This document shows positions 8,471 to 64,000 of a stretch of DNA of 64,000 bases, in pieces; position 1 is the first letter of the stretch, and every line of letters starts with the position of its first letter. This DNA comes from a virus: positions 1-64,000 of IMG/VR virus record IMGVR_UViG_3300009008_000022, one strand, 5' to 3'. Made by a program: the position numbers and the translations under genes. The notes beneath the pieces are model-generated. The model did not search any database, was not told where the DNA came from, and saw nothing but the letters and a program-made list of their open reading frames with translations.

Positions 8471-10810
8471 ATGGCAGCTTCGACACTCTACTTTAATGGG
8501 CGGCTGTACCGGCGGCCTGGATCATACTCGACTGTGGACGCCAGCGCCCTGGACGCGGTTGGAATCAGCGCCACCGGGATCGTGGCCGTGGTGGGCACCT
8601 CGAAGGGCGGCAAGCCCTACAGCGCGGTGTCCAGCTCCGACGTGAAGGGCACGCTCCAGGCCAGCACCAGCCCCGGCAAGGCGAAGGGGTTTTTCCAGAA
8701 GGGCAGCCAGATGATCGAGGCTGAGAGCTTCCTCTTTAACCCGTCCGCGGACGAGGATATTGAAGGTGGCGCGCAGAAGGTGTTTTGGGTCAAGCCCAAC
8801 AAGAGCACCGCCTCGACGCTGGCAATGGCAAACGGTGACGGGCAGGCCATTGTCTACACGTCCGAGGACTACGGCTACCATACTCAGCAGATCTCCATTG
8901 CCCAGGGCGCCGGCACCTCCAAGGGCAAGCTGATCACAATCACCGGGCCGTACCAGGGCGTGCAGACCACCGAGGCGTTCGATAACGTGGGCGGTGACGT
9001 GCTGTTTACCTGGAAGTATCTCGCCACAGCTCCGGCCGGCGGGTTTACCACGATCACGGCCACCGCCAGCGCCACCGCGCTGCTTGCTGCTTTCACCCGA
9101 GACAGCGCCAGCCTGACCGGCGAGATCGATGCGCAGATCACCGCGGGCAACGCGATTGAGCTGTCCAGCGCCGACGCGGGCGACACACAGGTGGTCCGTG
9201 TTTACGGCATGGACAACGCCGCGACTCCGGCCGCGCAGACCGAGGAGATCACCCTGAACGGCACCACCGCGGTTTTGGGCACCGCGGTGTGGAGCAAGAT
9301 CCACGGGATCAGCATCCCGACCGCACCGGCCGGCACCGTGACCGCCAAAAACGGCGCAGGCGGCGCCACCGTGGCGACCCTGACGCCGGCAGCTCTGACC
9401 AAGGGCCTGTCGGTCTGTTCTGACTGCCCGGTGGGCAAGGGCACCCTGTCGGTCAAGGCCAGCGGCGCCTCCACCGACAAGGTTGGCGTCTACGGCCTGA
9501 GCGCCAGCGGCACCTTGCAGTACGAGGTGATCACCCTGGCAGGCACTACCCCGGTTGCGGGAACCTCCACATGGAGCCGGATCGATTATGTGGCAATGGG
9601 CGCGGTTGCCACCGTGACCGTGACCGTGAGCGGCACCGCGGCGGCCGTGTATTTCTCCGGCTACGACACGATCCAGAAGGCGGCGGATTACATCAACGGC
9701 TTGGGGGGCATGACCTTCACCGTCGTGACCGGCAAGACCGGCTACCTGCTAACCAACCTGGACCGGATCAGTACCGGCGTGAGCATCAAAACCACGGCGT
9801 ACAGCTTCTACGGCGATCTGTGGGCGATCATCGAGAAGATTAACGCGGAGTCCGGCCTGGTGACGGCGGCCCGCGGCAGCGTGGGCTCCGGCGTGCCGAC
9901 CAACGCGGCGGCGCAGTACATGGCCGGCGGCAATGAGGGCAGCTCCACGCCAGGGCAGGAAGGCACCCCGACCGCCACCGCGGCAGACTGGCAGGCAAGC
10001 CTGGATCTGCTCAAAAAGGTGTTCGTCAACACCGTGGTGGTTTTGACCCCGGACGCGGCGGTCCATGCGCAGCTCAAGGCCCACTGTGCCTATATGGGCG
10101 GCGCCGGCCAGATGGAGCGCGACGGGATCGTTGGCGTGATGAATGCCGCGAAAACCGGCATGGCGACAAAGACCGAGATCAAGAGCCAGATCGTTGCGAT
10201 CAACTCGCGGCACCTTCGCGTGGTGGCGCAGCGGGTCCAGCGTTACAACGCGGCCGGCAGTAAGGAAACATTCGAGCCCTACATGGCGGCGCTCCTGGCG
10301 GCCGGTATGCAGGCCGGGTCCGAGGTGGGCACCAGTTTGACCAACAAGCTGATGAGCACCTTGAAGATCGAACAGGACAGCTCGTGGAATCCCGCCGACG
10401 ACGCGGAGGAAATGCTGGAGGCCGGCTTGCTGTTTGGCGAGGTGGTTGACGGCCAGGGCATCCGGTGGGTCCGCAACGTCACGAGCTGTGTTAGCTCAAA
10501 CAACCTGAGAGACACCGACGCGAACGTCAACGAAGCGGTTAATGTTTTTGTCTACAACTTCCGTTCCGAGATGGAAAGGGCCGTGGGCGCCCGTGGCTTT
10601 GCTTCGACCGTAGCCGCCACCGATGGTGTGGCGCGGGAAAAGCTCCGCGTGCTCACCGGCGTGGCAATCGTGACCTGGCGGTCGCTGAACATCACGCTCA
10701 CCCTGGACGTGCTTGCCATCGACGTTGAGGTCGCGCCGGTTATCAGCATCAACTTTGTGCGAAACACGATCCATCTGGTGAGCGCACCGATCAGCAACGT
10801 CGCCAGCTAA
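8471..10810 (+). CDS. Tail sheath protein
   Basis: 779 aa. N-terminal FNGR..RRPG.YS; C-terminal AAG......SLTNK...A.EMLEAG...IRWVRNVT...V.VAPV.SINF. Confidence 0.88.
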   Translation: MAASTLYFNGRLYRRPGSYSTVDASALDAVGISATGIVAVVGTSKGGKPYSAVSSSDVKGTLQASTSPGKAKGFFQKGSQMIEAESFLFNPSADEDIEGGAQKVFWVKPNKSTASTLAMANGDGQAIVYTSEDYGYHTQQISIAQGAGTSKGKLITITGPYQGVQTTEAFDNVGGDVLFTWKYLATAPAGGFTTITATASATALLAAFTRDSASLTGEIDAQITAGNAIELSSADAGDTQVVRVYGMDNAATPAAQTEEITLNGTTAVLGTAVWSKIHGISIPTAPAGTVTAKNGAGGATVATLTPAALTKGLSVCSDCPVGKGTLSVKASGASTDKVGVYGLSASGTLQYEVITLAGTTPVAGTSTWSRIDYVAMGAVATVTVTVSGTAAAVYFSGYDTIQKAADYINGLGGMTFTVVTGKTGYLLTNLDRISTGVSIKTTAYSFYGDLWAIIEKINAESGLVTAARGSVGSGVPTNAAAQYMAGGNEGSSTPGQEGTPTATAADWQASLDLLKKVFVNTVVVLTPDAAVHAQLKAHCAYMGGAGQMERDGIVGVMNAAKTGMATKTEIKSQIVAINSRHLRVVAQRVQRYNAAGSKETFEPYMAALLAAGMQAGSEVGTSLTNKLMSTLKIEQDSSWNPADDAEEMLEAGLLFGEVVDGQGIRWVRNVTSCVSSNNLRDTDANVNEAVNVFVYNFRSEMERAVGARGFASTVAATDGVAREKLRVLTGVAIVTWRSLNITLTLDVLAIDVEVAPVISINFVRNTIHLVSAPISNVAS

Positions 10811-53084: not shown

Positions 53085-54851
53085 ATGAGATCAACCCGCA
53101 AGCTGCCGAATAACTGCCTACGCAGGCACGATCCACCGGTACGCACGCCCGTTGTGGGCGGCCAAGTCCAGCGGTCGCTCAAGGACGTAATCAGCGAGAT
53201 CAAGGATCAGGGCGAGCTGCAATCTTCGCTCACGTCCGCCACAACTCAGGCCGCGCTGCATGAGCACATGCTCGTGGCGAGCTGCGCTTACTTCGCAGAG
53301 GCGACGATCAGCGGTCCTAACGAGGAGCCTTACAACGGCCGGTTTCTAATCGCAAAGCACCACCTGGCATGGGATGAGGCGCTGCTCAGCAACAAGAAGC
53401 TCTGCATTCAGGCAGCTCGTGACCACGGCAAGAGCCACTTTTGGGCGGTCGCTTTCCCAATCTGGCTTGGCGGGTGGCGAATGCCTGGCGGCCTGGGCTA
53501 TATGTTCAGCGCGAGCCAGGAGCTTGCCGAGGAAAAGCTGGAGCTGGTCAAGCGCGAGATCAAACAGAACGAGGCGCTGCATTGGCTGATACCCGAGAGC
53601 GGTGAGCGGTACTGGTCAAAGCGGGAGATCCGGCTGAGCACCGGAACCATCATCCGAGCCCGCGGTTGGGGCGTCCGCGTCCGAGGCGGCCACCCTCAGT
53701 GGATCATTGCAGACGACGTGTTAGACGACGACTGCTTGTATTCGGAAACCATCCGGCGCCGGTCGGTTGAGTACTTCTTCAGCGTGCCCGTCAACATGGT
53801 GGTGCCGAACGGCTGGCTCGTCGTGGTCGGTACGCCGTTTCACTTCGCGGACCTGTACCACAAGATCGCGGAAACCGGGAAATACGCCTGCTTAACTTTT
53901 GCCGCCCTGGACGGCGAAGATCCGCTATTCCCGCAGCGGTACAACGCAGCTCGCTTGCAGGACAAACGAGAGGAGATCGGAGAGATCCGGTTTGCTCGCG
54001 AGTTTCTGTGCCGGCCGCTATCCGATGAGGCGTCCCTGTTTCCGTCGCACCTGTTTGAAGGTGACGAGGTGCGCGTGCCGTACCGCCTGGGCATGGGCGC
54101 GGACCATTGGGAGGAGCGAAACATGCTCCGGTACACCGGCGTTGACCTGGCCTTTTCCGCCGAGACTGGCGCGGACTACACCGTGATCATCACGATTGCA
54201 GTAGACCCGCACGGCAACCGGTGGCTGGCAAACATGCGCAGGGGCCGCGGTTGGGGCTATTCCAGGCAGATCCAGGAGATGAAAGAGGAGTACGCGCTCA
54301 TGCGGCCTGATATGTTCCACATCGAGGCCAATCAGGCTCAGCGCATCCTGGGCGATTCAATCGCAGCTCAGTCCATTTTGCCCGTCCGGCTTTTCTTCAC
54401 GGCCGGCGCTCAGCCCAAAAAGCCCTGGACCCGCGGCATGACCAGCATTACCGCAGGCAAGCACAGCCTGGACCGCGGCGTACCGAGCTTGAGGCTGGCA
54501 TTCGAGCGCAAGAAGTGGCGGATCCCGCGCGGTGACGCGCACGCCATTGACATGACCGACACCTGGATCGCGGAGTTTAATTGCATTGCCTACGAAAACG
54601 GCAAGGTTGAGTCCGTGGGCGAGCATGACGATTGCGTGATGGCTACTTGGATGGCGGACACCGCAGCTCGCATGGGCGAAGGTGTTACGATGGTATTCGG
54701 AGGAGAGGAAGCAGAGCCGGAAAATGTTGATCCAGACGCGCCCGAAGCGGAGGATCTAGACTACTTCGGGCTAGGTGAGTACGATGCTGGGGAGGAACAA
54801 CCCCCGCAGTACAACCTGGGAAGCCTGATCGGAGACAGAACAGGAGAGTGA
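53085..54851 (+). CDS. terL: Terminase large subunit (true start may be slightly downstream)
   Basis: AARDHGKS (Walker A), VRG, IIADD (Walker B), VGTP...DLY, FAREF, GVDLA, HDD.VMA.W. Confidence 0.92.
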   Translation: MRSTRKLPNNCLRRHDPPVRTPVVGGQVQRSLKDVISEIKDQGELQSSLTSATTQAALHEHMLVASCAYFAEATISGPNEEPYNGRFLIAKHHLAWDEALLSNKKLCIQAARDHGKSHFWAVAFPIWLGGWRMPGGLGYMFSASQELAEEKLELVKREIKQNEALHWLIPESGERYWSKREIRLSTGTIIRARGWGVRVRGGHPQWIIADDVLDDDCLYSETIRRRSVEYFFSVPVNMVVPNGWLVVVGTPFHFADLYHKIAETGKYACLTFAALDGEDPLFPQRYNAARLQDKREEIGEIRFAREFLCRPLSDEASLFPSHLFEGDEVRVPYRLGMGADHWEERNMLRYTGVDLAFSAETGADYTVIITIAVDPHGNRWLANMRRGRGWGYSRQIQEMKEEYALMRPDMFHIEANQAQRILGDSIAAQSILPVRLFFTAGAQPKKPWTRGMTSITAGKHSLDRGVPSLRLAFERKKWRIPRGDAHAIDMTDTWIAEFNCIAYENGKVESVGEHDDCVMATWMADTAARMGEGVTMVFGGEEAEPENVDPDAPEAEDLDYFGLGEYDAGEEQPPQYNLGSLIGDRTGE

Positions 54852-55434: not shown

Positions 55435-55444
55435 AGCCCCGATA

Positions 55445-55525
55445 CAGGGCACCGGCCGGCGCTAAACCGGCCGCGAATGGCGCCCTCCAAGCGCGGCCCA
55501 ATGGCCCGGCCGGCGCCCTGCTTTT
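55445..55525 (+). ncRNA. Long hairpin with anti-RBS loop, ending in a U-tract (terminator and/or 3'UTR-derived sRNA)
   Basis: Outer stem 55445-55459/55506-55520 (1 mismatch); inner stem 55469-55475/55492-55498; loop AATGGCGCCCTCCAAG; then CTTTT. Confidence 0.5.
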
Positions 55526-55568
55526 GGAGCTGGATCGCGCATGGGCTACCCTGTTTCGCGTAGGTGGT

Positions 55569-55824
55569 TTTGCTTAACCACCACCTTAACTAGCAGCTTA
55601 ACTAGGTGCTGTCCCTGCCACCTGGACGCGAGCCGTCCGCCCCCGTCATTTTTGTCCGTCCGAAGCGGTGGAATTGTCCACCGATACGGTAAAGGTGCGA
55701 GATGATTGGGGGCGGCCTGTCGTTTTGCTTAACCTATGGCTTAACTAGCAACTTATCCAATTCGTAGCAGATGCAGATGCAGATGAAGATCTGTTTTTAA
55801 GGGGGGGTGCAGGGGGGGAAACCG
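55569..55824 (+). repeat. Non-coding second copy of the iteron/origin element
   Basis: Two triplets of CTTA(A/T)C(C/T) at 12-bp spacing (55573/85/97; 55728/40/52), then CGTAGCAGATGCAGATGCA and GGGGGTGCAGGGGG as in 33558-33657. Confidence 0.8.
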
Positions 55825-55839
55825 GGAGAAGGATCCGCC

Positions 55840-58800
55840 ATGCCTATTTGGCTAAAACAACCGCCGCAGCCCGCGCCGATAATCCAGGCGAACAGCGCCT
55901 TGCTCACCATGCGCCAGGCAGAGCGCACGCCACCGGCCAGCCGCGGTGAGTTTGGGAACATGAAGCAGGCCAACAGTGTGCGTGACGTGCTGGACGGGCT
56001 AGGTCTGGGGATGGATCTTGAGCGCGCCCTGGGCGAGCGCGTTGAGCAATGGCTGGCCTGTCGTACCCAGGTTGAGATCATGGAGCGCGCACGGCACGAT
56101 CTGGCCGGAGCTGTGGCGGATCCCTACGTCCGGCGCGAGATCATGGGCCGCGCCATGAACCTGTGGCTGCGCACCGTGCAACCGGCCGAGCGGGCGCCGA
56201 ACCATGGGACCATGATCATCAAGGCCCAGGCTGCGCAGTTCGCACCGGACAACCGGCGGCGGTGGGGAGGTGGGAAGCCCTACGGCGGGCAACGTCCGCC
56301 CTTGAGCCGGACGGTGACAGGACAGCCGAGCGGTGGAGGGTGGGAGGAAGTAAAGAACAGCGCCCATGGAGGTTGGCGCAGGCCGGACGGCCGCGGTGGT
56401 TACGAATATTGGTATCCAGGGCAGGGCGGCCCCGGTGGCGGCCCTGGGGGAGCTGGGGGCGAAGCCAAGCCTCACCCGAATGAGGGCCAGGGCAAGGGCG
56501 ATCCAAAGCCACCTGGCGTAAGGTGGGCACCTGTGCCGCACCATGCGCCGGGAACATTCCGCCGGCCAGCCGAAGATCATTCCGCGGGCGGGCCAGCTCA
56601 CGCTTCACGCATGGAGGCGCAAGGGATTGCCTCAGAGCCGCACCGCGGGGCAGCGGAGGGGGAGAGTCAAGGCAACGAAACCCAGGGCGACAAGCCCGCA
56701 GAATCAGGAAAGGACTCCGGCATCCCGCCAGAGCTGCAAGCGCAGCTCGCCCAGGCCATTGAAGCCTACGGTATGGACGCGGTGAAAAAGGGGCTGGGGA
56801 GCGTGACAGAGGCCGCGGCGAAGGCGGCCGATGAGCAGTACCAGGCCAAGGCCGCGGAGCTGGGGAAACATGAGACAGTCCAGGCCGCGGTAAAAGAGCA
56901 CTTCGGCGGCAAGCTGCGCAGCAAGCCGAGCGAGCAAGAGGTTAAACAGCTCGCAAAAAAGCTGGGCAACGATCCCGAGATCCGCAAGCTGGCTGAAACG
57001 GCCATGCAGGGCGCCGATGGTGCGGTGGTGGACGCGATAGCCCAGGCCGCGGTGGACGCAGCCCCCAAGGCCGATCCTGGCCTGGCTAAAAAGCTCCTGG
57101 TAGGCGCCAAGGTCGCAGCCAAGGCAGCTCTGCCGAGCGCGGCGTTTGGTTTCGTGGACAACTTCATGCTGTACCTGGCAGGGGCGAGCATTGACACCAT
57201 GATCGCAGCCATGGGTTTCGGCGCCGCGGTGGTGGCCGGCCTGGGCAACGCAATCAGTGATTCAGTGGGCGAAGCCGTGGCTGACAAGATGGAGCGTTTC
57301 CTCGACAAACTGCCAGGGCTGAAAGAGGACGAGAAGGATGTTCTGACCCCGGAGCAGCGTCAGAAGATCGAGAGCAAGGCTAAGGTCGCGGGCGTGTTTG
57401 TTGGCGCGATCATCGGCATGTGCCCGTTGCTGGTAGGGATCGGGTTTGGGGGAGCGCCAGCCGCCAAGTCAGAACGGCTGGTATTTGCCGGCGGCCGGTT
57501 GCTGCTCAAGAGCGAGCCGGACCCGTTGCCCGCCCTGGACGGAGCGCCCGAGCTGGTGTTTGTCATGGTGGACACCGAGCCGCGCGACGGCCTGTTTCTG
57601 GTCAAGGGAGCGGGGCACAAGTACCTCAGACGGATCCGCAACCCGAGCCCACCGCCCAACTGGCGCTATCTGTACAAGTACCCAACCAGGAAGGGTTTGG
57701 TACACGACGATCACCTCGTTGAAGGGGCGAAATTCAAGGGCAAACACGGCGACCTGGAGGGCCACTTTGAAGTAACCGGAGTGGTCAAAAAGAAGGGCAA
57801 GCACGTTATCGCGCTGAAGCACGACGAGTCCGGCAAAACGATCTACGTTCACCGCAAGGACATTCAGGGAATGCTCACCCGCTATCACAAGGATGCGGGC
57901 ACGCATAAGGAGCCGCGCAAGCGCAAGCCCAGGGCGCCCAGGGCGCCGGCTAAGAGCTTTCCCGAGCCGGACAAGAGCAAGGCAACCGAGGGCACCTACA
58001 GCGGCGAGCTGCCGAAGATCGGGCTCAGGGACACTCACGCATGGGAGGAGATGAAAGGCTTTGCTGACGATGAGCAAGCCGCGCGGGAATTGCTGGCGAG
58101 CTGGGACACGCACGGCCAGGAGTACGGCCTGATACCGCAGCCCAACGGGGTGATGATTATGCGCCGGACAGCTCGCACCGGCAGCAAGGCGGTGAAAGAG
58201 GGCGCGTCTACCGTGGTGGCGTTCAAGGGCGACGGCAAGATAGAGCGCCAGCAAGGCGAGTACATGGTCATGGAAATGAGCGAGCTGATCCCGAGCCACA
58301 AGCCAGGGAGCTTTGCGCCGGACCCGCGCTACCCCGATGGTGTTCAGGAGCGCGTTTACCACGACGATCCAAACGAGCGCGCGAAGGTGGAGGAGATCGC
58401 CCGCGGCCTGGATCCTTTTTTCGTGATCAACACCAATAACGACGGCGTTGGAGGGCCGCCCGTGATCACTCCAGACGGGATCGTGCTAGGCGGCAACGGT
58501 CGCACCATGGGGATCATGACGGCATACACGCACTACCCGGAGAGCGGGCAGAAGTACAAGGATCACCTGGCAAGCCAGGCCAGCGACTTTGGTTTCAGCT
58601 CGCATGACATTCAGGGCATGAGCCAGCCGGTGCTAGTGCGGCGCGTGGCGGTGGACGCGAATAACACGCAGAAGGCTCGCATGTGGGCGCGCGTGCTGAA
58701 TGAGCCGTTGACGCAGGGCATGGACCCGCGCACCGAGGAAGTTGCGGTCGCGAAGAACCACATGAACGAGCGCGTGATCGCCGCCCTGGTGGCCGGCATG

Positions 58801-59790
58801 AAAGAGGGCGAGACAATCCACGCCTTTTTGAGCGGGGCACATAGCCGTGAGTTTGTGGACGGGTTGAAGCTGGCCGGCATCATCGACCGGTACAACGAAA
58901 GCAAGTATCGCCACGTTGACGCCACGGCCGGAGCTGACAAGCAAGGGCTGCTTAACGAGGAAGGGATCATGAGGATCCAGCGCGTGCTAATCGCCTCGCT
59001 TATCCCTGATTCTCGGCTGCTCAAGCGTATGCCGAAAAACATGATCACAGCTCTGGCCGGCAGCGTGCCGCACCTGTACCGCGCCCAGGCCGCCGGTTGG
59101 GATCTGTCCGGCGCGCTGGCCGCGGCGGCGGACGCCTGGCTTGACGCGAAACACCGGGAGTACAAGACAGCCGCCGCCTACCTCAAGGCCACCGAAATGG
59201 ACTACGGCGACGGCGATAACAAGATGGCGCCGTTGATGAAAGATCAGGCCGCGGAGTTTATGTTTCGGATCCTGTTCAAACCGCAGGCCACCGCGACGGC
59301 CACAAAGATGCGCGAGCTGGCAAACCGCGCGGGAATGGCGAAGCAAGCCCGAGAGGAGCAGGACAGCGGCGGCATGTTTGCCATGCTGGGCGAAACCGCG
59401 GACGCGCCAGAGCCGGAGAAGTTGACCGACGCGCTTGATACGATCTGGGGTATCACGGCAGAGGGGCGCGGCCGGCGCCAGGCGGAAAAGGACGCGGCCA
59501 GGGCGGAACAGCTCAAGGCGTACCAGGCGCGAGCCGATGAAATGGGAATGCACGTCGAGCAGTACGAGGCTTACCAGGATTGGGCCGCGGAGGACAAGAA
59601 GTGGCAGGACCGGCAGAACAAGCGCAAGCGCAAGGCGCGCAAGCCGGACCCGAGGCCGGAGAAGCCGCCGATCATCCAAGGGCTGAGAGTGGGACACCGG
59701 GAGCACAACATGGGGCTATTCCGCGAGCACGATGCGAAGCGACGGCGCGAGCAGATGAAAGACGACAGCCGGGAGCGGGAGGCAAGTTAA
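55840..59790 (+). CDS. Large polyvalent protein 1: repeat tag, TMEM65-like membrane domain, HKY module, DdrB-like ParB domain (start 55840 or 55960)
   Basis: FGFVDNF...AG..ID...AGLGNAISD..G...G...GAIIGM.PL (57121-57438); Y.V.E..ELIPSH...YP..VQ.R...GPPVI..DG.V.GGNGR...PVLVR (about 58255-58650). Confidence 0.85.
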   Translation: MPIWLKQPPQPAPIIQANSALLTMRQAERTPPASRGEFGNMKQANSVRDVLDGLGLGMDLERALGERVEQWLACRTQVEIMERARHDLAGAVADPYVRREIMGRAMNLWLRTVQPAERAPNHGTMIIKAQAAQFAPDNRRRWGGGKPYGGQRPPLSRTVTGQPSGGGWEEVKNSAHGGWRRPDGRGGYEYWYPGQGGPGGGPGGAGGEAKPHPNEGQGKGDPKPPGVRWAPVPHHAPGTFRRPAEDHSAGGPAHASRMEAQGIASEPHRGAAEGESQGNETQGDKPAESGKDSGIPPELQAQLAQAIEAYGMDAVKKGLGSVTEAAAKAADEQYQAKAAELGKHETVQAAVKEHFGGKLRSKPSEQEVKQLAKKLGNDPEIRKLAETAMQGADGAVVDAIAQAAVDAAPKADPGLAKKLLVGAKVAAKAALPSAAFGFVDNFMLYLAGASIDTMIAAMGFGAAVVAGLGNAISDSVGEAVADKMERFLDKLPGLKEDEKDVLTPEQRQKIESKAKVAGVFVGAIIGMCPLLVGIGFGGAPAAKSERLVFAGGRLLLKSEPDPLPALDGAPELVFVMVDTEPRDGLFLVKGAGHKYLRRIRNPSPPPNWRYLYKYPTRKGLVHDDHLVEGAKFKGKHGDLEGHFEVTGVVKKKGKHVIALKHDESGKTIYVHRKDIQGMLTRYHKDAGTHKEPRKRKPRAPRAPAKSFPEPDKSKATEGTYSGELPKIGLRDTHAWEEMKGFADDEQAARELLASWDTHGQEYGLIPQPNGVMIMRRTARTGSKAVKEGASTVVAFKGDGKIERQQGEYMVMEMSELIPSHKPGSFAPDPRYPDGVQERVYHDDPNERAKVEEIARGLDPFFVINTNNDGVGGPPVITPDGIVLGGNGRTMGIMTAYTHYPESGQKYKDHLASQASDFGFSSHDIQGMSQPVLVRRVAVDANNTQKARMWARVLNEPLTQGMDPRTEEVAVAKNHMNERVIAALVAGMKEGETIHAFLSGAHSREFVDGLKLAGIIDRYNESKYRHVDATAGADKQGLLNEEGIMRIQRVLIASLIPDSRLLKRMPKNMITALAGSVPHLYRAQAAGWDLSGALAAAADAWLDAKHREYKTAAAYLKATEMDYGDGDNKMAPLMKDQAAEFMFRILFKPQATATATKMRELANRAGMAKQAREEQDSGGMFAMLGETADAPEPEKLTDALDTIWGITAEGRGRRQAEKDAARAEQLKAYQARADEMGMHVEQYEAYQDWAAEDKKWQDRQNKRKRKARKPDPRPEKPPIIQGLRVGHREHNMGLFREHDAKRRREQMKDDSREREAS

Positions 59791-62183
59791 TGGCGAAGGC
59801 AGAGAAGAAGGGCGCCGCCGCGGCCGGAGTCCGGTACGTCATGGACTGCCTGCTGGTGGAGGCCAAATTCGAGGTACAAGGGGCGGTGCACCTGTCCATG
59901 ATTAAGGACCGGAGCGTGAGCGTTAAAACCTCAGAGATCGTCGCGCGCCTCAAGAAGTTCGCCCAGGCCAAGCTGGAGCTGGACCCGCGGTTTCGCGCCG
60001 GTTGGGGCAGCTCGCCAGTGACCGATGAGCAGCTACACGCAATCGTCGGGCCGTTGGTTGAAATGCGGGCCGGAAAGATCGTCAAGGGCGGTGAGCGGAT
60101 CTGGTGCCAGGGAGGGCCAGCTCCGCGCCCTTTCGTTAAGGGCGAGCGGCCGTCCGGCGCAGGCTGGCAGGCCGTACCAAATACCAAATTTGGCGGGTAC
60201 AGGCGCCGCGGCAAGGGCGGCAAGTGGGAGTATTGGTATCCCGAAAAGCACGCCAAGTTGGGCCATGGGTTTGAAGCTGAGCATGTGGAGCTGCGCGAAA
60301 AGCGCGACCGCGTTGCGGCCGACATAGAGCGCCGCGGCCTGGGGGTGGAGTACGAAACGAGCCCAGGCCGGTATCTGGTTGTCATGCCGGACCCGTCGCA
60401 CGCGGGCAAGGTCCGCACGCAGAGCTACGATGAGCACGGATTCTCTGGGCACCGCACCTATGACGATCTGCCAGCTCTGGCCGCGGACGTTGCCAAGTGG
60501 GAGTACAACGGGATCAAGCCAGCTCAGGCCGGCACGCTAGACAAGCTCGCCCAGGGCGAGCCATGGCGCCAGGCCGCCCTTCACCAGCAAGCGTTAAGGG
60601 AGATCGAAAGCCTGGAGAGGCAGGGGCAGGACGTGAGCGAGCTACACGCGGTCCTAGCTCGCAAAGGGTCAGAGGCGCTACTGGCGCACCTGGGCAAGTC
60701 GGAGGCGCCGCGGTTGCTCGCCCTGGGCGACCGGTTGGTCAAGGCTGGCGTTGGAGCGGAGCGGCAACAGATCATGTTTGCAGCTCGCCAGCGCAAGCAG
60801 TACCCGCCAGGTTACAAGCCGGAGCACAAGGTCAAGGGAAAGACGGTCAAGGTCCACACTAACGGCTGGCAGGCTATCCCCAAGGGGCACAAGGGAGGCT
60901 ATCGGCGCCGGACCCGCGGCGGGTGGGAGTACTGGTATCCAGACCATCACGCGCGGCCTGGGCTACACGCACCGAGCGTGGAGCCGCACGGCGGCACGTT
61001 GGCCGAAGCGGTGGAGCTGCGCGAAAAGCACGGCGTGCCGATCCATGTAAGCTGTGGCGCTGGGGTGGACAGTACCGGTTTGCTGGTAGGCATGTATCAG
61101 CAGGGGATCCGGCCGGATGCGGTTGTGTTTGCGGACGTGGGGAACGAAAACCCGCGCACTTATATGTTCCTTCCCCACCTGGACGCATGGCTGAGATCGG
61201 TTGGCTTCCCGCCCCTAACCGTGGTGCGAAACAAGCCGACCGTTAGCGCCTCAGAAATGGTGAGAGAGGCGCGCGGAAAGACTTACGCCACGTTGGAACA
61301 GAACGTGGTGCTGCATGAAACCCTGCCGTCAATCTCACTGGCCGGTGGCCGCGGTTGCAGCCAGAAGTGGAAACACCAGCCTCAAGAAGCCTGGGCAAAC
61401 CAGCGCGAGGATTGCCAGTCGGCATGGGAGCAGGGCTTCAAGGTCACGAAGCTAATCGGCTACAGCTCTGACCCGGCGGACAAGCGCCGGCCGGATATGC
61501 CGGACGATGAGAAGTATCACTATCAGTACCCGTTGCGTGAATGGGGGTGGGATCGGGAGCGGTGCAAGAAAGAGATCGCCGCGGCCGGTATGCCCGTACC
61601 AGTCAAGAGCGCGTGCTGGTTTTGCACAGCGACCAAGCCGCACGAGCTGCGCCGCATAGTGAGCGAGTACCCCGACATCGGCCGCCGGATAATCCAGATG
61701 GAGGCCGCCGCGGAGGACAACCTACGCAAGATCCGCGGCCTGTGGGGCACACCGGTGAAGGGGGCCAGGGGCGCGCTAAAGAAGCCGGGAACAATGGCAG
61801 AGTGGATCATCGGGGAGGAGTTGCTGCCGGAGTTTAAGGGCCAGGATATTGTTGACCCGTGGTGGCGCCAATCAGGCCAGGTGACGCCCGGTAACGAGCA
61901 CTTCAAGGTGGCGGACGTGATGCACCTTGTAGACGCGCCACCGCCGCCGGTGAGCCCGCTTGAGGATCTAAGCGGCCTGGCTCCGGTGGACACCGACGAG
62001 CTGCGCGAGCAGAGCAAGGCGCGAAAGCGAGGTGGTGCGGTTCAGACCAGCTTGTTTAAGAGCGCGCCCAGGGCGACGATGAGGGACGGAGATCAAAAGT
62101 TCTGGGCAGCCATGGCATTGATCCAGGCGTTTGATCAATTCGACAGCATGGGCAAGGACGGCAAGCGGCATGGATCTGAATGA
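59790..62183 (+). CDS. Large polyvalent protein 2: two repeat tags and a PAPS-reductase-like (PP-loop) domain
   Basis: TAATG coupling; VSCGAGVDST, FADVG.E, CS.KWK, YPL.EWG..R..C, KSACWFC. Confidence 0.85.
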   Translation: MAKAEKKGAAAAGVRYVMDCLLVEAKFEVQGAVHLSMIKDRSVSVKTSEIVARLKKFAQAKLELDPRFRAGWGSSPVTDEQLHAIVGPLVEMRAGKIVKGGERIWCQGGPAPRPFVKGERPSGAGWQAVPNTKFGGYRRRGKGGKWEYWYPEKHAKLGHGFEAEHVELREKRDRVAADIERRGLGVEYETSPGRYLVVMPDPSHAGKVRTQSYDEHGFSGHRTYDDLPALAADVAKWEYNGIKPAQAGTLDKLAQGEPWRQAALHQQALREIESLERQGQDVSELHAVLARKGSEALLAHLGKSEAPRLLALGDRLVKAGVGAERQQIMFAARQRKQYPPGYKPEHKVKGKTVKVHTNGWQAIPKGHKGGYRRRTRGGWEYWYPDHHARPGLHAPSVEPHGGTLAEAVELREKHGVPIHVSCGAGVDSTGLLVGMYQQGIRPDAVVFADVGNENPRTYMFLPHLDAWLRSVGFPPLTVVRNKPTVSASEMVREARGKTYATLEQNVVLHETLPSISLAGGRGCSQKWKHQPQEAWANQREDCQSAWEQGFKVTKLIGYSSDPADKRRPDMPDDEKYHYQYPLREWGWDRERCKKEIAAAGMPVPVKSACWFCTATKPHELRRIVSEYPDIGRRIIQMEAAAEDNLRKIRGLWGTPVKGARGALKKPGTMAEWIIGEELLPEFKGQDIVDPWWRQSGQVTPGNEHFKVADVMHLVDAPPPPVSPLEDLSGLAPVDTDELREQSKARKRGGAVQTSLFKSAPRATMRDGDQKFWAAMALIQAFDQFDSMGKDGKRHGSE

Positions 62184-64000
62184 CCTGTTACAGCGAGGGT
62201 TGAGAAAGGCGGAACAGCTCGATCTGTTTGGGCCGGAGCAACTAACCTCAGACAGAGGGCCACGAGACACCGTGAAGCCGGCCACGCCGCGCCGAGTTGG
62301 TAAGCCAGGCCGCGGCAAGCGCCGCAAGAGCAAGCGCGTTATACCGCCGCACCAGGGCCACATGACGCCACCTGGCAAGGGTTGGCAGGCTATCCCGCGG
62401 GGCAAGAAGGGCGGTTTCAGACGCAAGGGCAGCAACGGCAAGTGGGAGTACTGGTATCCCAACAGGGGAATCACTCCCAGCCCGCACCATAAAGACATTC
62501 CCGACAGGCCCGATCCGGCGAAGGATCCGAAGGGCGCGCTGGCATGGTGGGGGATGCGCCTTTATGAAGGCACCGTCAACGACGAGGGGTTTTGGCAGGA
62601 CCACCGGAGGACAACCGGAGCCAGGCCGCGGGTTTACAGCTTGAGTTGGGATTATGGCCGAATGAGCCTGGCCCTGTTTGATGCAGTCGAGGGCATACCT
62701 CAACAGCAAAGGGCCGCCATTTTGGAGCCGACGCGGGAGCGAGCGCACTTCCCCCGCGATCAGTTCACCGACATGGCCGAAAGCTATCGCCGGTTGGAGG
62801 AATACCAAGTCGCGGTGCGATTGAATGCCGAGCGCCGGCCGGCCGCCCCCGTCGAGGACGTTGACGCCGCGGTGGACAGCCTGCAAGGGGTGGAGCCGGA
62901 GTCCGCCCAGGGCGCCGACGTGCCGCACCTGGAAGTTGAGGAGTACGACGGCCGCGAGGGCGATCCAAACCACCTTACGCGCAAGGAAACCGGCCGCGTA
63001 ACGCCGCAAAGCCTGGCTCACTTAAAGGGGGCCAGGAAAGAGCACGGCTACATGCGCTGGCACGACGGCAGCGCCATTGGAGCGAAGGATCCAGGGGAAT
63101 ACTTCGGCAGATATACCAGGGAAAAGTGGGAGGCGTTTGTTGCCGACATTAAAGCGCGCGGCGTTCAGGATCCGGTTTTCATCGTTAGGAACCCAGAGCC
63201 AGGCACGCGGCACGATCCGGCTGGAACGTGGGTGTATGAGGGCAATCACCGCATAGCCGCGGCATTGGAGGCGGGGGTTAAAACGATCCCGGTAGAGATC
63301 CGCTACTTCGGCCACACTGAGCGCGACGGCCAGGCTGCGCCAGGGTGGGATCGTATGCCCGAGAGTGAGCCCGCCCAGGGCGAGCCACACGAGCCGGGGC
63401 CGGATACGTTTCACGGCAAACTTACGGCGCTACGGGCCGAGGCTGAAAGGCTGGACTTGCCCACGGCCGCCAGGCTGCTTAACCCGGAAGGCTGGCCCAC
63501 GGACGATGAGAAGTTGGGCAGCGTGCTAATGGACGCCACCGCGGAGCTGGGCGGGTTGCTAGTAGGGGAGGATACGCCGGACAACCGCCGCCGCCGTGAG
63601 CTGCTAATCGAGGGGATCAAGGTCTGGACCAAGGATGGCGAGTACGAGCCGATCACGTCCCTGCATACCAGCCGCGAGGATCTTCAACGGCTGGGGTTTA
63701 GGACCATTGCCAAGTTCACTGATCTGAAAAAGCTGGGCTACCGTATCGTTCAGTGGGCGCGCGTGGTGGGCGAGGTGTACGGCGACAACAAGGACATGGC
63801 CGGTTGGGAGATCGTTCACGAGTATGACCCGATGCACCCCGACGCGGGCAGCGGCGCAGGGCTGGCCGGCAAGCGTGATCACAAGACGGGTGACGGGTTG
63901 GGCTATTGGGAGGCTCCAGCGCCCGGTGATGCGCCAGGGATGAGCCCCGAGGCGGTGCGCTACACGGCGCCGGCCGGACCCGCGACAAGCAAGGTCCATG
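62170..64000 (+). CDS. Large polyvalent protein 3 (runs off the window; absent from ORF track): repeat tag and ParB/Srx-like domain
   Basis: Manual translation from ATG 62170: MDLNDLLQRGLRKAEQLDLFG...GWQAIPRGKKGGFRRKGSNGKWEYWYP...FVADIKARGVQDPVFIV...YEGNHRIAAALEAGVKTIPVEIRY; no stop seen. Confidence 0.85.
   Translation, partial: MDLNDLLQRGLRKAEQLDLFGPEQLTSDRGPRDTVKPATPRRVGKPGRGKRRKSKRVIPPHQGHMTPPGKGWQAIPRGKKGGFRRKGSNGKWEYWYPNRGITPSPHHKDIPDRPDPAKDPKGALAWWGMRLYEGTVNDEGFWQDHRRTTGARPRVYSLSWDYGRMSLALFDAVEGIPQQQRAAILEPTRERAHFPRDQFTDMAESYRRLEEYQVAVRLNAERRPAAPVEDVDAAVDSLQGVEPESAQGADVPHLEVEEYDGREGDPNHLTRKETGRVTPQSLAHLKGARKEHGYMRWHDGSAIGAKDPGEYFGRYTREKWEAFVADIKARGVQDPVFIVRNPEPGTRHDPAGTWVYEGNHRIAAALEAGVKTIPVEIRYFGHTERDGQAAPGWDRMPESEPAQGEPHEPGPDTFHGKLTALRAEAERLDLPTAARLLNPEGWPTDDEKLGSVLMDATAELGGLLVGEDTPDNRRRRELLIEGIKVWTKDGEYEPITSLHTSREDLQRLGFRTIAKFTDLKKLGYRIVQWARVVGEVYGDNKDMAGWEIVHEYDPMHPDAGSGAGLAGKRDHKTGDGLGYWEAPAPGDAPGMSPEAVRYTAPAGPATSKVH

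Follow-up and report, generated by a model that had tools for sequence, protein, structure and literature searches.

We describe a conserved protein tag that recurs in the giant polyproteins encoded at the 3′ end of a 64,000-nucleotide stretch of viral DNA (the window), which corresponds to bases 1-64000 of the 81,458-bp IMG/VR contig IMGVR_UViG_3300009008_000022 (CheckV completeness 61%). Six consecutive giant open reading frames (ORFs A-F), all on the + strand, lie 3′ of terL, the gene for the large terminase subunit; the contig beyond the window was also read. Judged from their sequences, these ORFs encode phage polyvalent proteins, that is, multi-enzyme effector polyproteins coded among late head genes, for which carriage in the virion is predicted. 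The tag is a basic, aromatic-rich unit of ~30 residues with the consensus PPGxGW..IP..K.GG[YF]RR...G.WEYWYP. We tentatively favor the reading that it acts as a common handle at the head of protease-released modules, keeping them in the phage head for delivery with the genome. The prediction from which this work started, made on the window before any database search, overlooked both the identity of the system, which belongs to the polyvalent proteins of Iyer et al. (2017), and the protease-site-like motif that usually precedes the tag.

Recurrence, spread and predicted fold of the tag

A profile hidden Markov model (HMM) of the tag gave nine matches in the six-frame translation of the whole contig, with E values of 3e-18 to 2e-7, all of them inside the six giant ORFs. 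The best match elsewhere in the six frames has an E value of 0.87, so the recurrence of the tag is not a matter of chance. The four copies named in the original prediction are all present on the + strand at their proposed positions in ORFs A, B and C (A1, B1, B2, and C1; Table 1); for the degenerate copy proposed in ORF A, the stretch exists but its match to the profile is weak and borderline. Beyond the window, five further copies are found in three further giant ORFs (contig positions 68656-68772, 72781-72870, 75531-75605, and 78837-78944). At the DNA level the mean column identity of the copies is ~69%, with many synonymous differences; alike in protein and not in DNA, the copies have been kept by selection on the protein and are not the product of recent duplication or misassembly. 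ORFs A, B, and C are otherwise unrelated, as had been proposed: in an all-against-all BLASTP of the giant ORFs they share little besides the tag regions, the lone other match, between B and C, being weak (E 7e-4).

The tag also occurs beyond this contig. Searched with a profile built from the contig's eight copies, a set of 1.84 billion cluster representatives yielded 430 with E ≤ 1e-3 and, among these, 74 with E ≤ 1e-10; single proteins have up to six copies. A word-indexed search of 5.8 billion proteins returned large tag proteins with precomputed Pfam assignments to InPase, ART-PolyVal, LPD1, ddrB-ParB, topoisomerase I, and SNF2/Sno, and a Pfam scan of 55 further tag-bearing members added SAM lyase and C5 methylase; most members gave no Pfam match. 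Inside the tag-bearing polyvalent proteins P0010 and P0016 lies a topoisomerase IB catalytic domain of the eukaryotic type (PF01028, best E 7.5e-18). These two and P0008, P0011, P0014, and P0018 have in common a conserved C-terminal region of ~500 residues, with no Pfam match, that contains the stretches ...GLVMAL.SY.GG..F... and ...EQVP.G.W.... A search of the ESM Atlas with the tag gave no usable match.

The gene context of tag proteins was read at ten IMG/VR viral loci, and in every case the tag is found in giant tandem ORFs on one strand. The neighboring genes include portal at four loci and terL at one, as well as ddrB-ParB, InPase, Zeta toxin, SNF2 giants, and LPD1; at one related locus an ORF next to the tag ORF has an M90-like peptidase match. 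The proposal that a modular tag heads different payloads in the head-gene region, which was to be sought by an HMM search for tags before varied domains near terL or portal, thus describes a real and conserved arrangement. In the syntenic relative G004, the tag ORF is followed by an SNF2 giant and then by the genes for head maturation protease, scaffold, major head protein, a phrog_772 protein, and tail sheath, an order that places the giant chain of the present phage between terL and the head-shell genes. The G004 protease is a strong match to phrog_1028 (E 2.5e-48) and a weak one to Pfam S78 (17 bits, below the cut-off). With the Pfam models for capsid (PF05065) and S78, next to nothing was found in the relatives, in which PHROGs did detect capsid, scaffold, and protease genes.

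Two side observations concern individual relatives. The tag-bearing giant ORF (2548 aa) of the complete 78-kb relative G002 spans one in-frame TGA (G002:C1:46896-47018), which could be a sequencing error, a boundary between two genes, or a case of recoding. Intein/Hint matches were seen in a 668-aa ORF adjoining a tag ORF (L011:1561-3564) and within an SNF2 giant ORF of the same locus (L011:6366-14213).

The tag is predicted to be a small β-module, a three- to four-stranded meander that is WW-like in size and topology and can be assigned to no family. AlphaFold2 models copy C1, from a 26-row alignment, as a four-stranded β-meander with a mean pLDDT of 76.7, and the model of copy B1 with 12 upstream residues shows three core strands again (WQ, YRRR, and WEYW; core pLDDT 79-86). 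In line with the expectation that the tag matches no known stand-alone domain, the eight isolated tags gave no Pfam family at E ≤ 10, the lone match, to YedD (E 0.3), being noise, and the tag profile gave zero matches among PDB sequences. Foldseek of the tag model against PDB and BFVD gave nothing at E ≤ 0.001 (best PDB E 1.9). One BFVD row is convincing, a Zeta-toxin protein of an uncultured phage (probability 0.95, 33% identity), which probably carries another copy of the tag. A wide VIA-align search returned single β-propeller blades only, with Z ≤ 3.1.

Several identities for the tag were considered and rejected: no profile matched for MORN, choline-binding, or RHS/YD repeats. To the WW domain, a three-stranded antiparallel sheet of ~30-35 residues, the tag bears a resemblance and no more, in its size and predicted strands, in the GW at strand 1, the aromatic strand 2, and the W-x-P-like ending, and in the proline-rich segment just upstream. 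In contrast to WW domains, the tag ends in WYP rather than WxxP and is strongly basic; the WW profile has two tryptophans 20-22 residues apart with a proline three residues after the second, whereas the tag has the spacing W...(20) W-E-Y-W-Y-P. None of the eight copies matches a Pfam WW model at E ≤ 10, and the similarity to the Fe65 WW domain (rmsd, the root-mean-square deviation, 2.6 Å over 32 columns; Foldseek E 3.7) is not significant.

Putative cleavage sites and alternative heads

The tag forms part of a reusable unit, which we propose to consist of a leader, short and flexible, with hydrophobic-x-K/[S/A/G] at its end (the slash marks the putative cut), then the tag, then a payload; leader, tag, and payload occur in this order both at the starts of stand-alone genes and inside giant proteins. 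In a set of 265 tags from 165 proteins, the motif [LIVMF]-x?-K-[SAG] lies at most 14 residues upstream of 57% of tags (n = 247), compared with 11% for positions drawn at random from these proteins, with the leader lysine 7-10 residues ahead of the GW of the tag. The tag starts within the first 60 residues in 73 of the 265 cases, and a short M...phi-x-K-[SAG] leader, where phi is hydrophobic (e.g. M-x-F-S-D-L-V-K-A), is present in 42 of 64 N-terminal tags. Some tiny natural proteins of 91-176 residues (P0133, P0162, P0099, and P0109) contain little more than a leader with K/[AS] and the tag, to which a small domain or a polylysine tail is added; by sequence they have the appearance of minimal head proteins, internal or DNA-associated.

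The same motif is enriched in the head proteins of related phages. The scaffold proteins of three of them (L015:12270-13193:-, L016:366-1412:+, and L018:3010-3915:-) contain 7, 8, and 10 phi-x-K-[SAG] motifs versus 1.2-1.6 in composition-preserving shuffles, and 0 of 2000 shuffles reach the observed counts; the pattern points to cleavage of the scaffold by the protease at this motif. The prohead protease of a related phage has six motifs versus 0.96 expected (p 0.001). Capsid proteins of relatives have a conserved DLRK/A or ALRK/A near residue 30, and a more distant capsid protein has three K-[SAG] sites within its first 52 residues. In HK97, the model for proteases of this type, the capsid protein is cleaved at K103/S104 (PMC10275583). 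In the model of copy B1, the upstream FVKGE segment has no secondary structure and a pLDDT of 43-55, consistent with a flexible, exposed site. Motif enrichment, the HK97 precedent, and the unstructured predicted leader are circumstantial, but together they make phi-x-K/[SAG] a credible maturation site; a cut there would leave every freed module with the tag at its new N-terminus.

The tag is, by its sequence context, one member of a small family of basic and aromatic module heads that follow K-[SAG] sites. A second head motif, GP[YF]IGP[RK]GGKWADPxHxIPW, occurs 13 times in 166 proteins, almost always directly after phi-x-K-[SA]. In the scanned proteins it has no Pfam match, tblastn against 50,697 phage records found none either, and a word search with the contig's copy returned only itself. 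A third, AGHKYxxRxPTG...[YW]xYxY, is found in 14 of the 166 related proteins, in 13 of them right after K-[SAG]; the copy in ORF A looks like a tag that lacks strand 1 and has strands 2-3 only. One related complete genome has a Zeta-toxin protein that opens with the HKY-type head and a tag ORF in which a leader comes first and then the GPRGG-type head.

A further motif, Q[LM]x[LMF]F[GD] (EQLGLFG, QLDLFG, and QLGFDF), has 56 occurrences in 45 of the 166 tag-bearing proteins, P0038, P0046, and P0065 among them. It usually stands right after K-[AS], at protein starts or just before the tag, as in ...LLKAEQLGLFG...PPGxGW, and ORFs C, E, and F start with one. We take it to be a putative sliding-clamp-binding motif from its resemblance to QL[SD]LF.

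Payloads, gene order and the polyvalent-protein class

Polyvalent proteins were described by Iyer, Burroughs, Anand, de Souza, and Aravind in 2017, who predicted that the phage versions are coded among late genes, processed, and co-injected with the DNA (PMC5512222). The present ORFs resemble them in being giant, in joining unrelated enzymatic domains, and in lying near late virion genes. At least two disparate activities are combined in a single polypeptide, as in ORF A (TMEM65-like and ddrB-like ParB domains). Signature families are present: ddrB-ParB in ORF A, and the methylase (ORF D) and SNF2 helicase (ORF F) pair in one chain, with InPase, ART-PolyVal, LPD1, and Zeta toxin in relatives. 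The chain follows terL directly, the G004 chain precedes the protease, scaffold, and capsid genes, and portal adjoins four loci. The present proteins differ in two respects. Domain scans found no peptidase domain in the six ORFs, including the zincin-like metallopeptidase that is common though not universal in polyvalent proteins, and it is apparently the prohead protease that does the processing instead. In addition, the tag, the K-[SAG] leader, and the two sister motifs match no Pfam model; Pfam contains many LPD (large polyvalent protein-associated domain) models, and the comparison with LPDs was made through these models only.

The domains of ORFs A-C within the window are given in Table 1. 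Among the payloads originally proposed, the TMEM65-like and PAPS-reductase-like domains are borne out by clear profile matches, the latter also by tblastn matches to phage PAPS reductases, whereas the ParB domain of ORF C is a weak match. According to Pfam and PHROGs, ORF C also has DUF3560, and ORF D has an N6-methylase-like domain. ORF E contains two PAPS-reductase domains and other regions, bringing the contig total to three such domains, and ORF F has an SNF2/Strawberry-notch (Sno) helicase and a large C-terminal region. A hydrophobic, probably membrane-spanning module that ends in phi-phi-K/SE often follows the tag (P0008, P0010, P0012, and the TMEM65-like domain of ORF A); such modules could be membrane-inserting ejection proteins.

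The contig is that of a myovirus, with a tail sheath gene at 8471-10810 followed by baseplate genes, and its genes include some for replication, among them RecT and an SMC-like ATPase. The three consecutive giant ORFs originally described after terL translate as proposed, and their translational coupling is plausible from the junctions, at which neighboring ORFs overlap or abut: A/B share TAATG, the ATG of C lies 14 nt within B, D and E are adjacent, and E/F share ATGA; TAA-GTG is also seen. Between a 192-aa ORF after terL and ORF A is a non-coding gap of ~400 bp (55435-55839) in which the word GCTTAAC(C/T) recurs, GCAGAT stands three times in a row, and a Shine-Dalgarno region is rich in G. 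The gap may be a late promoter, operator, or cis element.

Table 1. Positions of the features discussed, numbered on the contig (identical to window positions up to 64000); a slash marks a putative cut
Feature	Position	Strand	Remarks
terL, large terminase subunit	53085-54851	+	phrog_38 E 5.6e-54; PF17289 match weak; upstream of the giant ORF chain
Giant ORF A, polyvalent protein by sequence	55840-59790	+	ATG at 55840 with Shine-Dalgarno upstream; open frame from GTG 55807
Tag copy A1	56326-56418	+	PSGGGW...EYWYP; HMM E 4.4e-12
Degenerate tag-like stretch, ORF A	56509-56568	+	PPGVRW...FRRP; HMM E 0.019, 10.7 bits; borderline
TMEM65-like membrane domain, ORF A	57124-57432	+	PF10507 E 3.7e-16; residues 440-542
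Cleavage-like site, ORF A	57499-57516	+	LLLK/SE, after the TMEM65-like domain
Variant module head, ORF A	57595-57684	+	FLVK/G, then AGHKYLRR...WRYLYKYP
ddrB-like ParB domain, ORF A	58243-58647	+	PF18763 E 3.9e-21; residues 813-947; signature domain of phage polyvalent proteins
Giant ORF B	59790-62183	+	ATG overlaps the stop of A; protein N-terminus MAK/AE
Tag copy B1	60150-60242	+	HMM E 1.1e-17; preceded by cleavage-like FVK/GE; site and tag 60132-60242
Tag copy B2	about 60864-60941	+	HMM E 3e-18; preceded by KVK/G; site and tag 60828-60941
PAPS-reductase-like domain, ORF B	61023-61736	+	phrog_424 E 1.2e-25; residues 482-719
Giant ORF C	62170-67059	+	Passes the window end at 64000; open frame of 1642 aa
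N-terminal leader of ORF C	62170-62232	+	MDLNDLLQRGLRK/A, then EQLDLFG, resembling a sliding-clamp-binding motif
Tag copy C1	62368-62460	+	HMM E 2.1e-17
ParB-like domain, ORF C	63112-63318	+	Weak match: PF02195 E 0.013; phrog_4715 E 3.7e-7
Q[LM]x[LMF]F[GD] motifs	62212-62232 (window); 69679-69702, 71077-71094, 72682-72705, 74616-74633		
Giant ORF D	67087-69663	+	
Giant ORF E	69664-74562	+	
GPRGG-type head motif	70843-70899		L002:8843-8899; other copies L010:9080-9223, P0014 (twice), P0037, P0040
Giant ORF F	74559-81185	+	

Possible roles of the tag

From the conservation, spread, genomic context, and predicted fold of the tag, and from its statistical link to K-[SAG], we infer cleavage, encapsidation, and a binding partner as follows. 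The precursors would enter the procapsid, where an HK97-type prohead protease would cleave after the lysine, and every released module would retain the tag at its new N-terminus. The tag would then bind a shared, probably polyanionic partner, for which packaged DNA and the scaffold with its acidic stretch are candidates, as may be the portal, and this binding would keep each module in the head until delivery with the genome. The tag has a net charge of +4.4 ± 2.1, and the scaffolds of related phages bear long acidic runs (E or D/E stretches), which makes a hand-over from scaffold to DNA conceivable.

The predicted sites resemble HK97-type processing (PMC10275583) in the Lys/small-residue site and in the enrichment of the motif in the scaffold, the protease, and the N-terminal region of the capsid protein of relatives; they differ in the weak match of the G004 protease to Pfam S78. 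In the giant phage SPN3US, ejection proteins are processed by the prohead protease (PMC10052503), and the cutting of cargo by the protease of the shell is proposed here from sequence. A short N-terminal element common to unrelated head-internal proteins, combined with prohead-protease cleavage (here predicted), is likewise known from the T4 capsid-targeting sequence and the P1 DarB signal, the latter lying within residues 1-30 (PMC9024508). The T4 sequence is a peptide of ~10-20 residues that is removed at LxE. The tag, by contrast, is predicted to be a folded domain of ~30 residues that follows the likely cut and would therefore remain part of the mature product, which would lose no more than the short leader ending in the lysine; it also repeats internally, and it has no sequence similarity to the T4 and P1 signals.

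Several observations weigh against the handle reading. A canonical K-[SAG] lies close upstream of only about half of the copies on the contig (B1, B2, D1, and F2 have one; A1 and C1 do not), and the K-[SAG] enrichment may partly reflect a helix-rich, Lys/Ala-rich sequence grammar, although the composition-preserving shuffles speak against this. No portal, protease, scaffold, or capsid gene was found on the 61%-complete contig, so the involvement of the protease is drawn from relatives. No copy of the tag was found by tblastn in 50,697 cultured or deposited phage records, the clade being uncultured, and a scan of the genomes of 185,579 species gave no true tag, its one match being a false positive; the patterns used in the scan were narrow, which makes it weak evidence of absence. 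The number of tags per genome also varies: there are nine in G005 and at least nine here, but only one or two in four others, two of which are 100% complete according to CheckV. The complete relatives G001 and G002 hold one or two tags despite having several giant polyvalent proteins, so the tag is optional and not a universal loading signal. Finally, since one tag per precursor would suffice for loading, multiple tags are a better fit to a role in retention, in ejection, or after injection than to one in loading.

A broader formulation of the handle reading, which is possible but which we hold with clearly less confidence, is that the leader phi-x-K/[S/A/G] and the WEYWYP mini-domain make up a portable cassette that would load, clip, and deliver any payload fused to it, held on DNA or first on acidic scaffold, with GPRGGKWADP..IPW and AGHKYxxR..YxYxY as alternative heads in the same undescribed grammar.

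A role after injection would account for the multiple copies as well, and we regard it as rather unlikely but worth serious consideration. The tag would then be a module that binds nucleic acid or a host factor and places effectors on DNA, often together with a QLxLF(G)-type motif, and packaging would be achieved by other means. The strongly basic and aromatic character of the tag is in keeping with this, as is the typical position of the Q[LM]x[LMF]F[GD] motifs between K-[AS] and the tag and at the starts of ORFs C, E, and F, although clamp binding by QLxLF is presumed from resemblance. The payloads are mostly DNA-acting enzymes (ParB, methylase, SNF2, topoisomerase IB, and PAPS reductase/DndC-like), and several tags per polyprotein would be sensible if each freed enzyme needed its own DNA anchor. 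On the other hand, the Foldseek and VIA-align searches revealed no homology to a known DNA-binding fold, and the tag also heads the membrane module of ORF A and the similar hydrophobic modules of P0008, P0010, and P0012, for which DNA anchoring is less obvious.

That the tag is purely a capsid-targeting signal, necessary and sufficient for loading into the procapsid through the scaffold, portal, or capsid protein, is improbable in our judgment. Its consistent position in the head-gene module, the N-terminal placement favored by stand-alone proteins, and the T4 and P1 DarB precedents would suit such a role. Against it stand the predicted fold of the tag and its location downstream of the putative cut, in contrast to the short, removed T4 peptide, as well as its internal repeats, which are unneeded for loading one precursor. 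Moreover, related complete genomes encode giant polyvalent proteins that lack the tag, and no tag was found on the protease or scaffold of related genomes.

We consider it similarly improbable that the tag has no addressing role and is a spacer, an element that presents the cut site, or a domain of cytoplasmic replication or anti-defense proteins that are never packaged: the tight spacing of 7-10 residues, the mostly predicted status of polyvalent-protein packaging itself (PMC5512222), and the RecT and SMC-like ATPase genes of the contig agree with this, but no tag follows the K-[SAG] sites of scaffold and capsid, and the protease would thus be able to work without one; W, Y, R, G, and P are strongly conserved among about 430 diverged clusters, which is more suggestive of a binding surface than of a spacer; and the giant ORFs are found between terL and the head genes, outside the replication module.

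Polyvalent proteins, head-targeting peptides, and protease-processed cargo (T4, P1 DarB, and SPN3US) are already known. No description of the tag, the leader grammar, or the sister motifs was found in the literature searched, in which a full-text search for YWYP gave unrelated peptides only; the comparison with LPDs covered those in Pfam.

The recruitment, cutting, and delivery of large, varied phage cargo are almost unstudied, and polyvalent proteins are predicted to be the phage's first strike on host defenses. A conserved handle combined with a cleavage grammar gives a sequence rule for dividing giant ORFs into working fragments and a route to injected effectors in metagenomes. Foreign proteins have been loaded into phage heads by fusion to the T4 capsid-targeting sequence and to the P1 DarB N-terminus, and the tag is a candidate for the same use.

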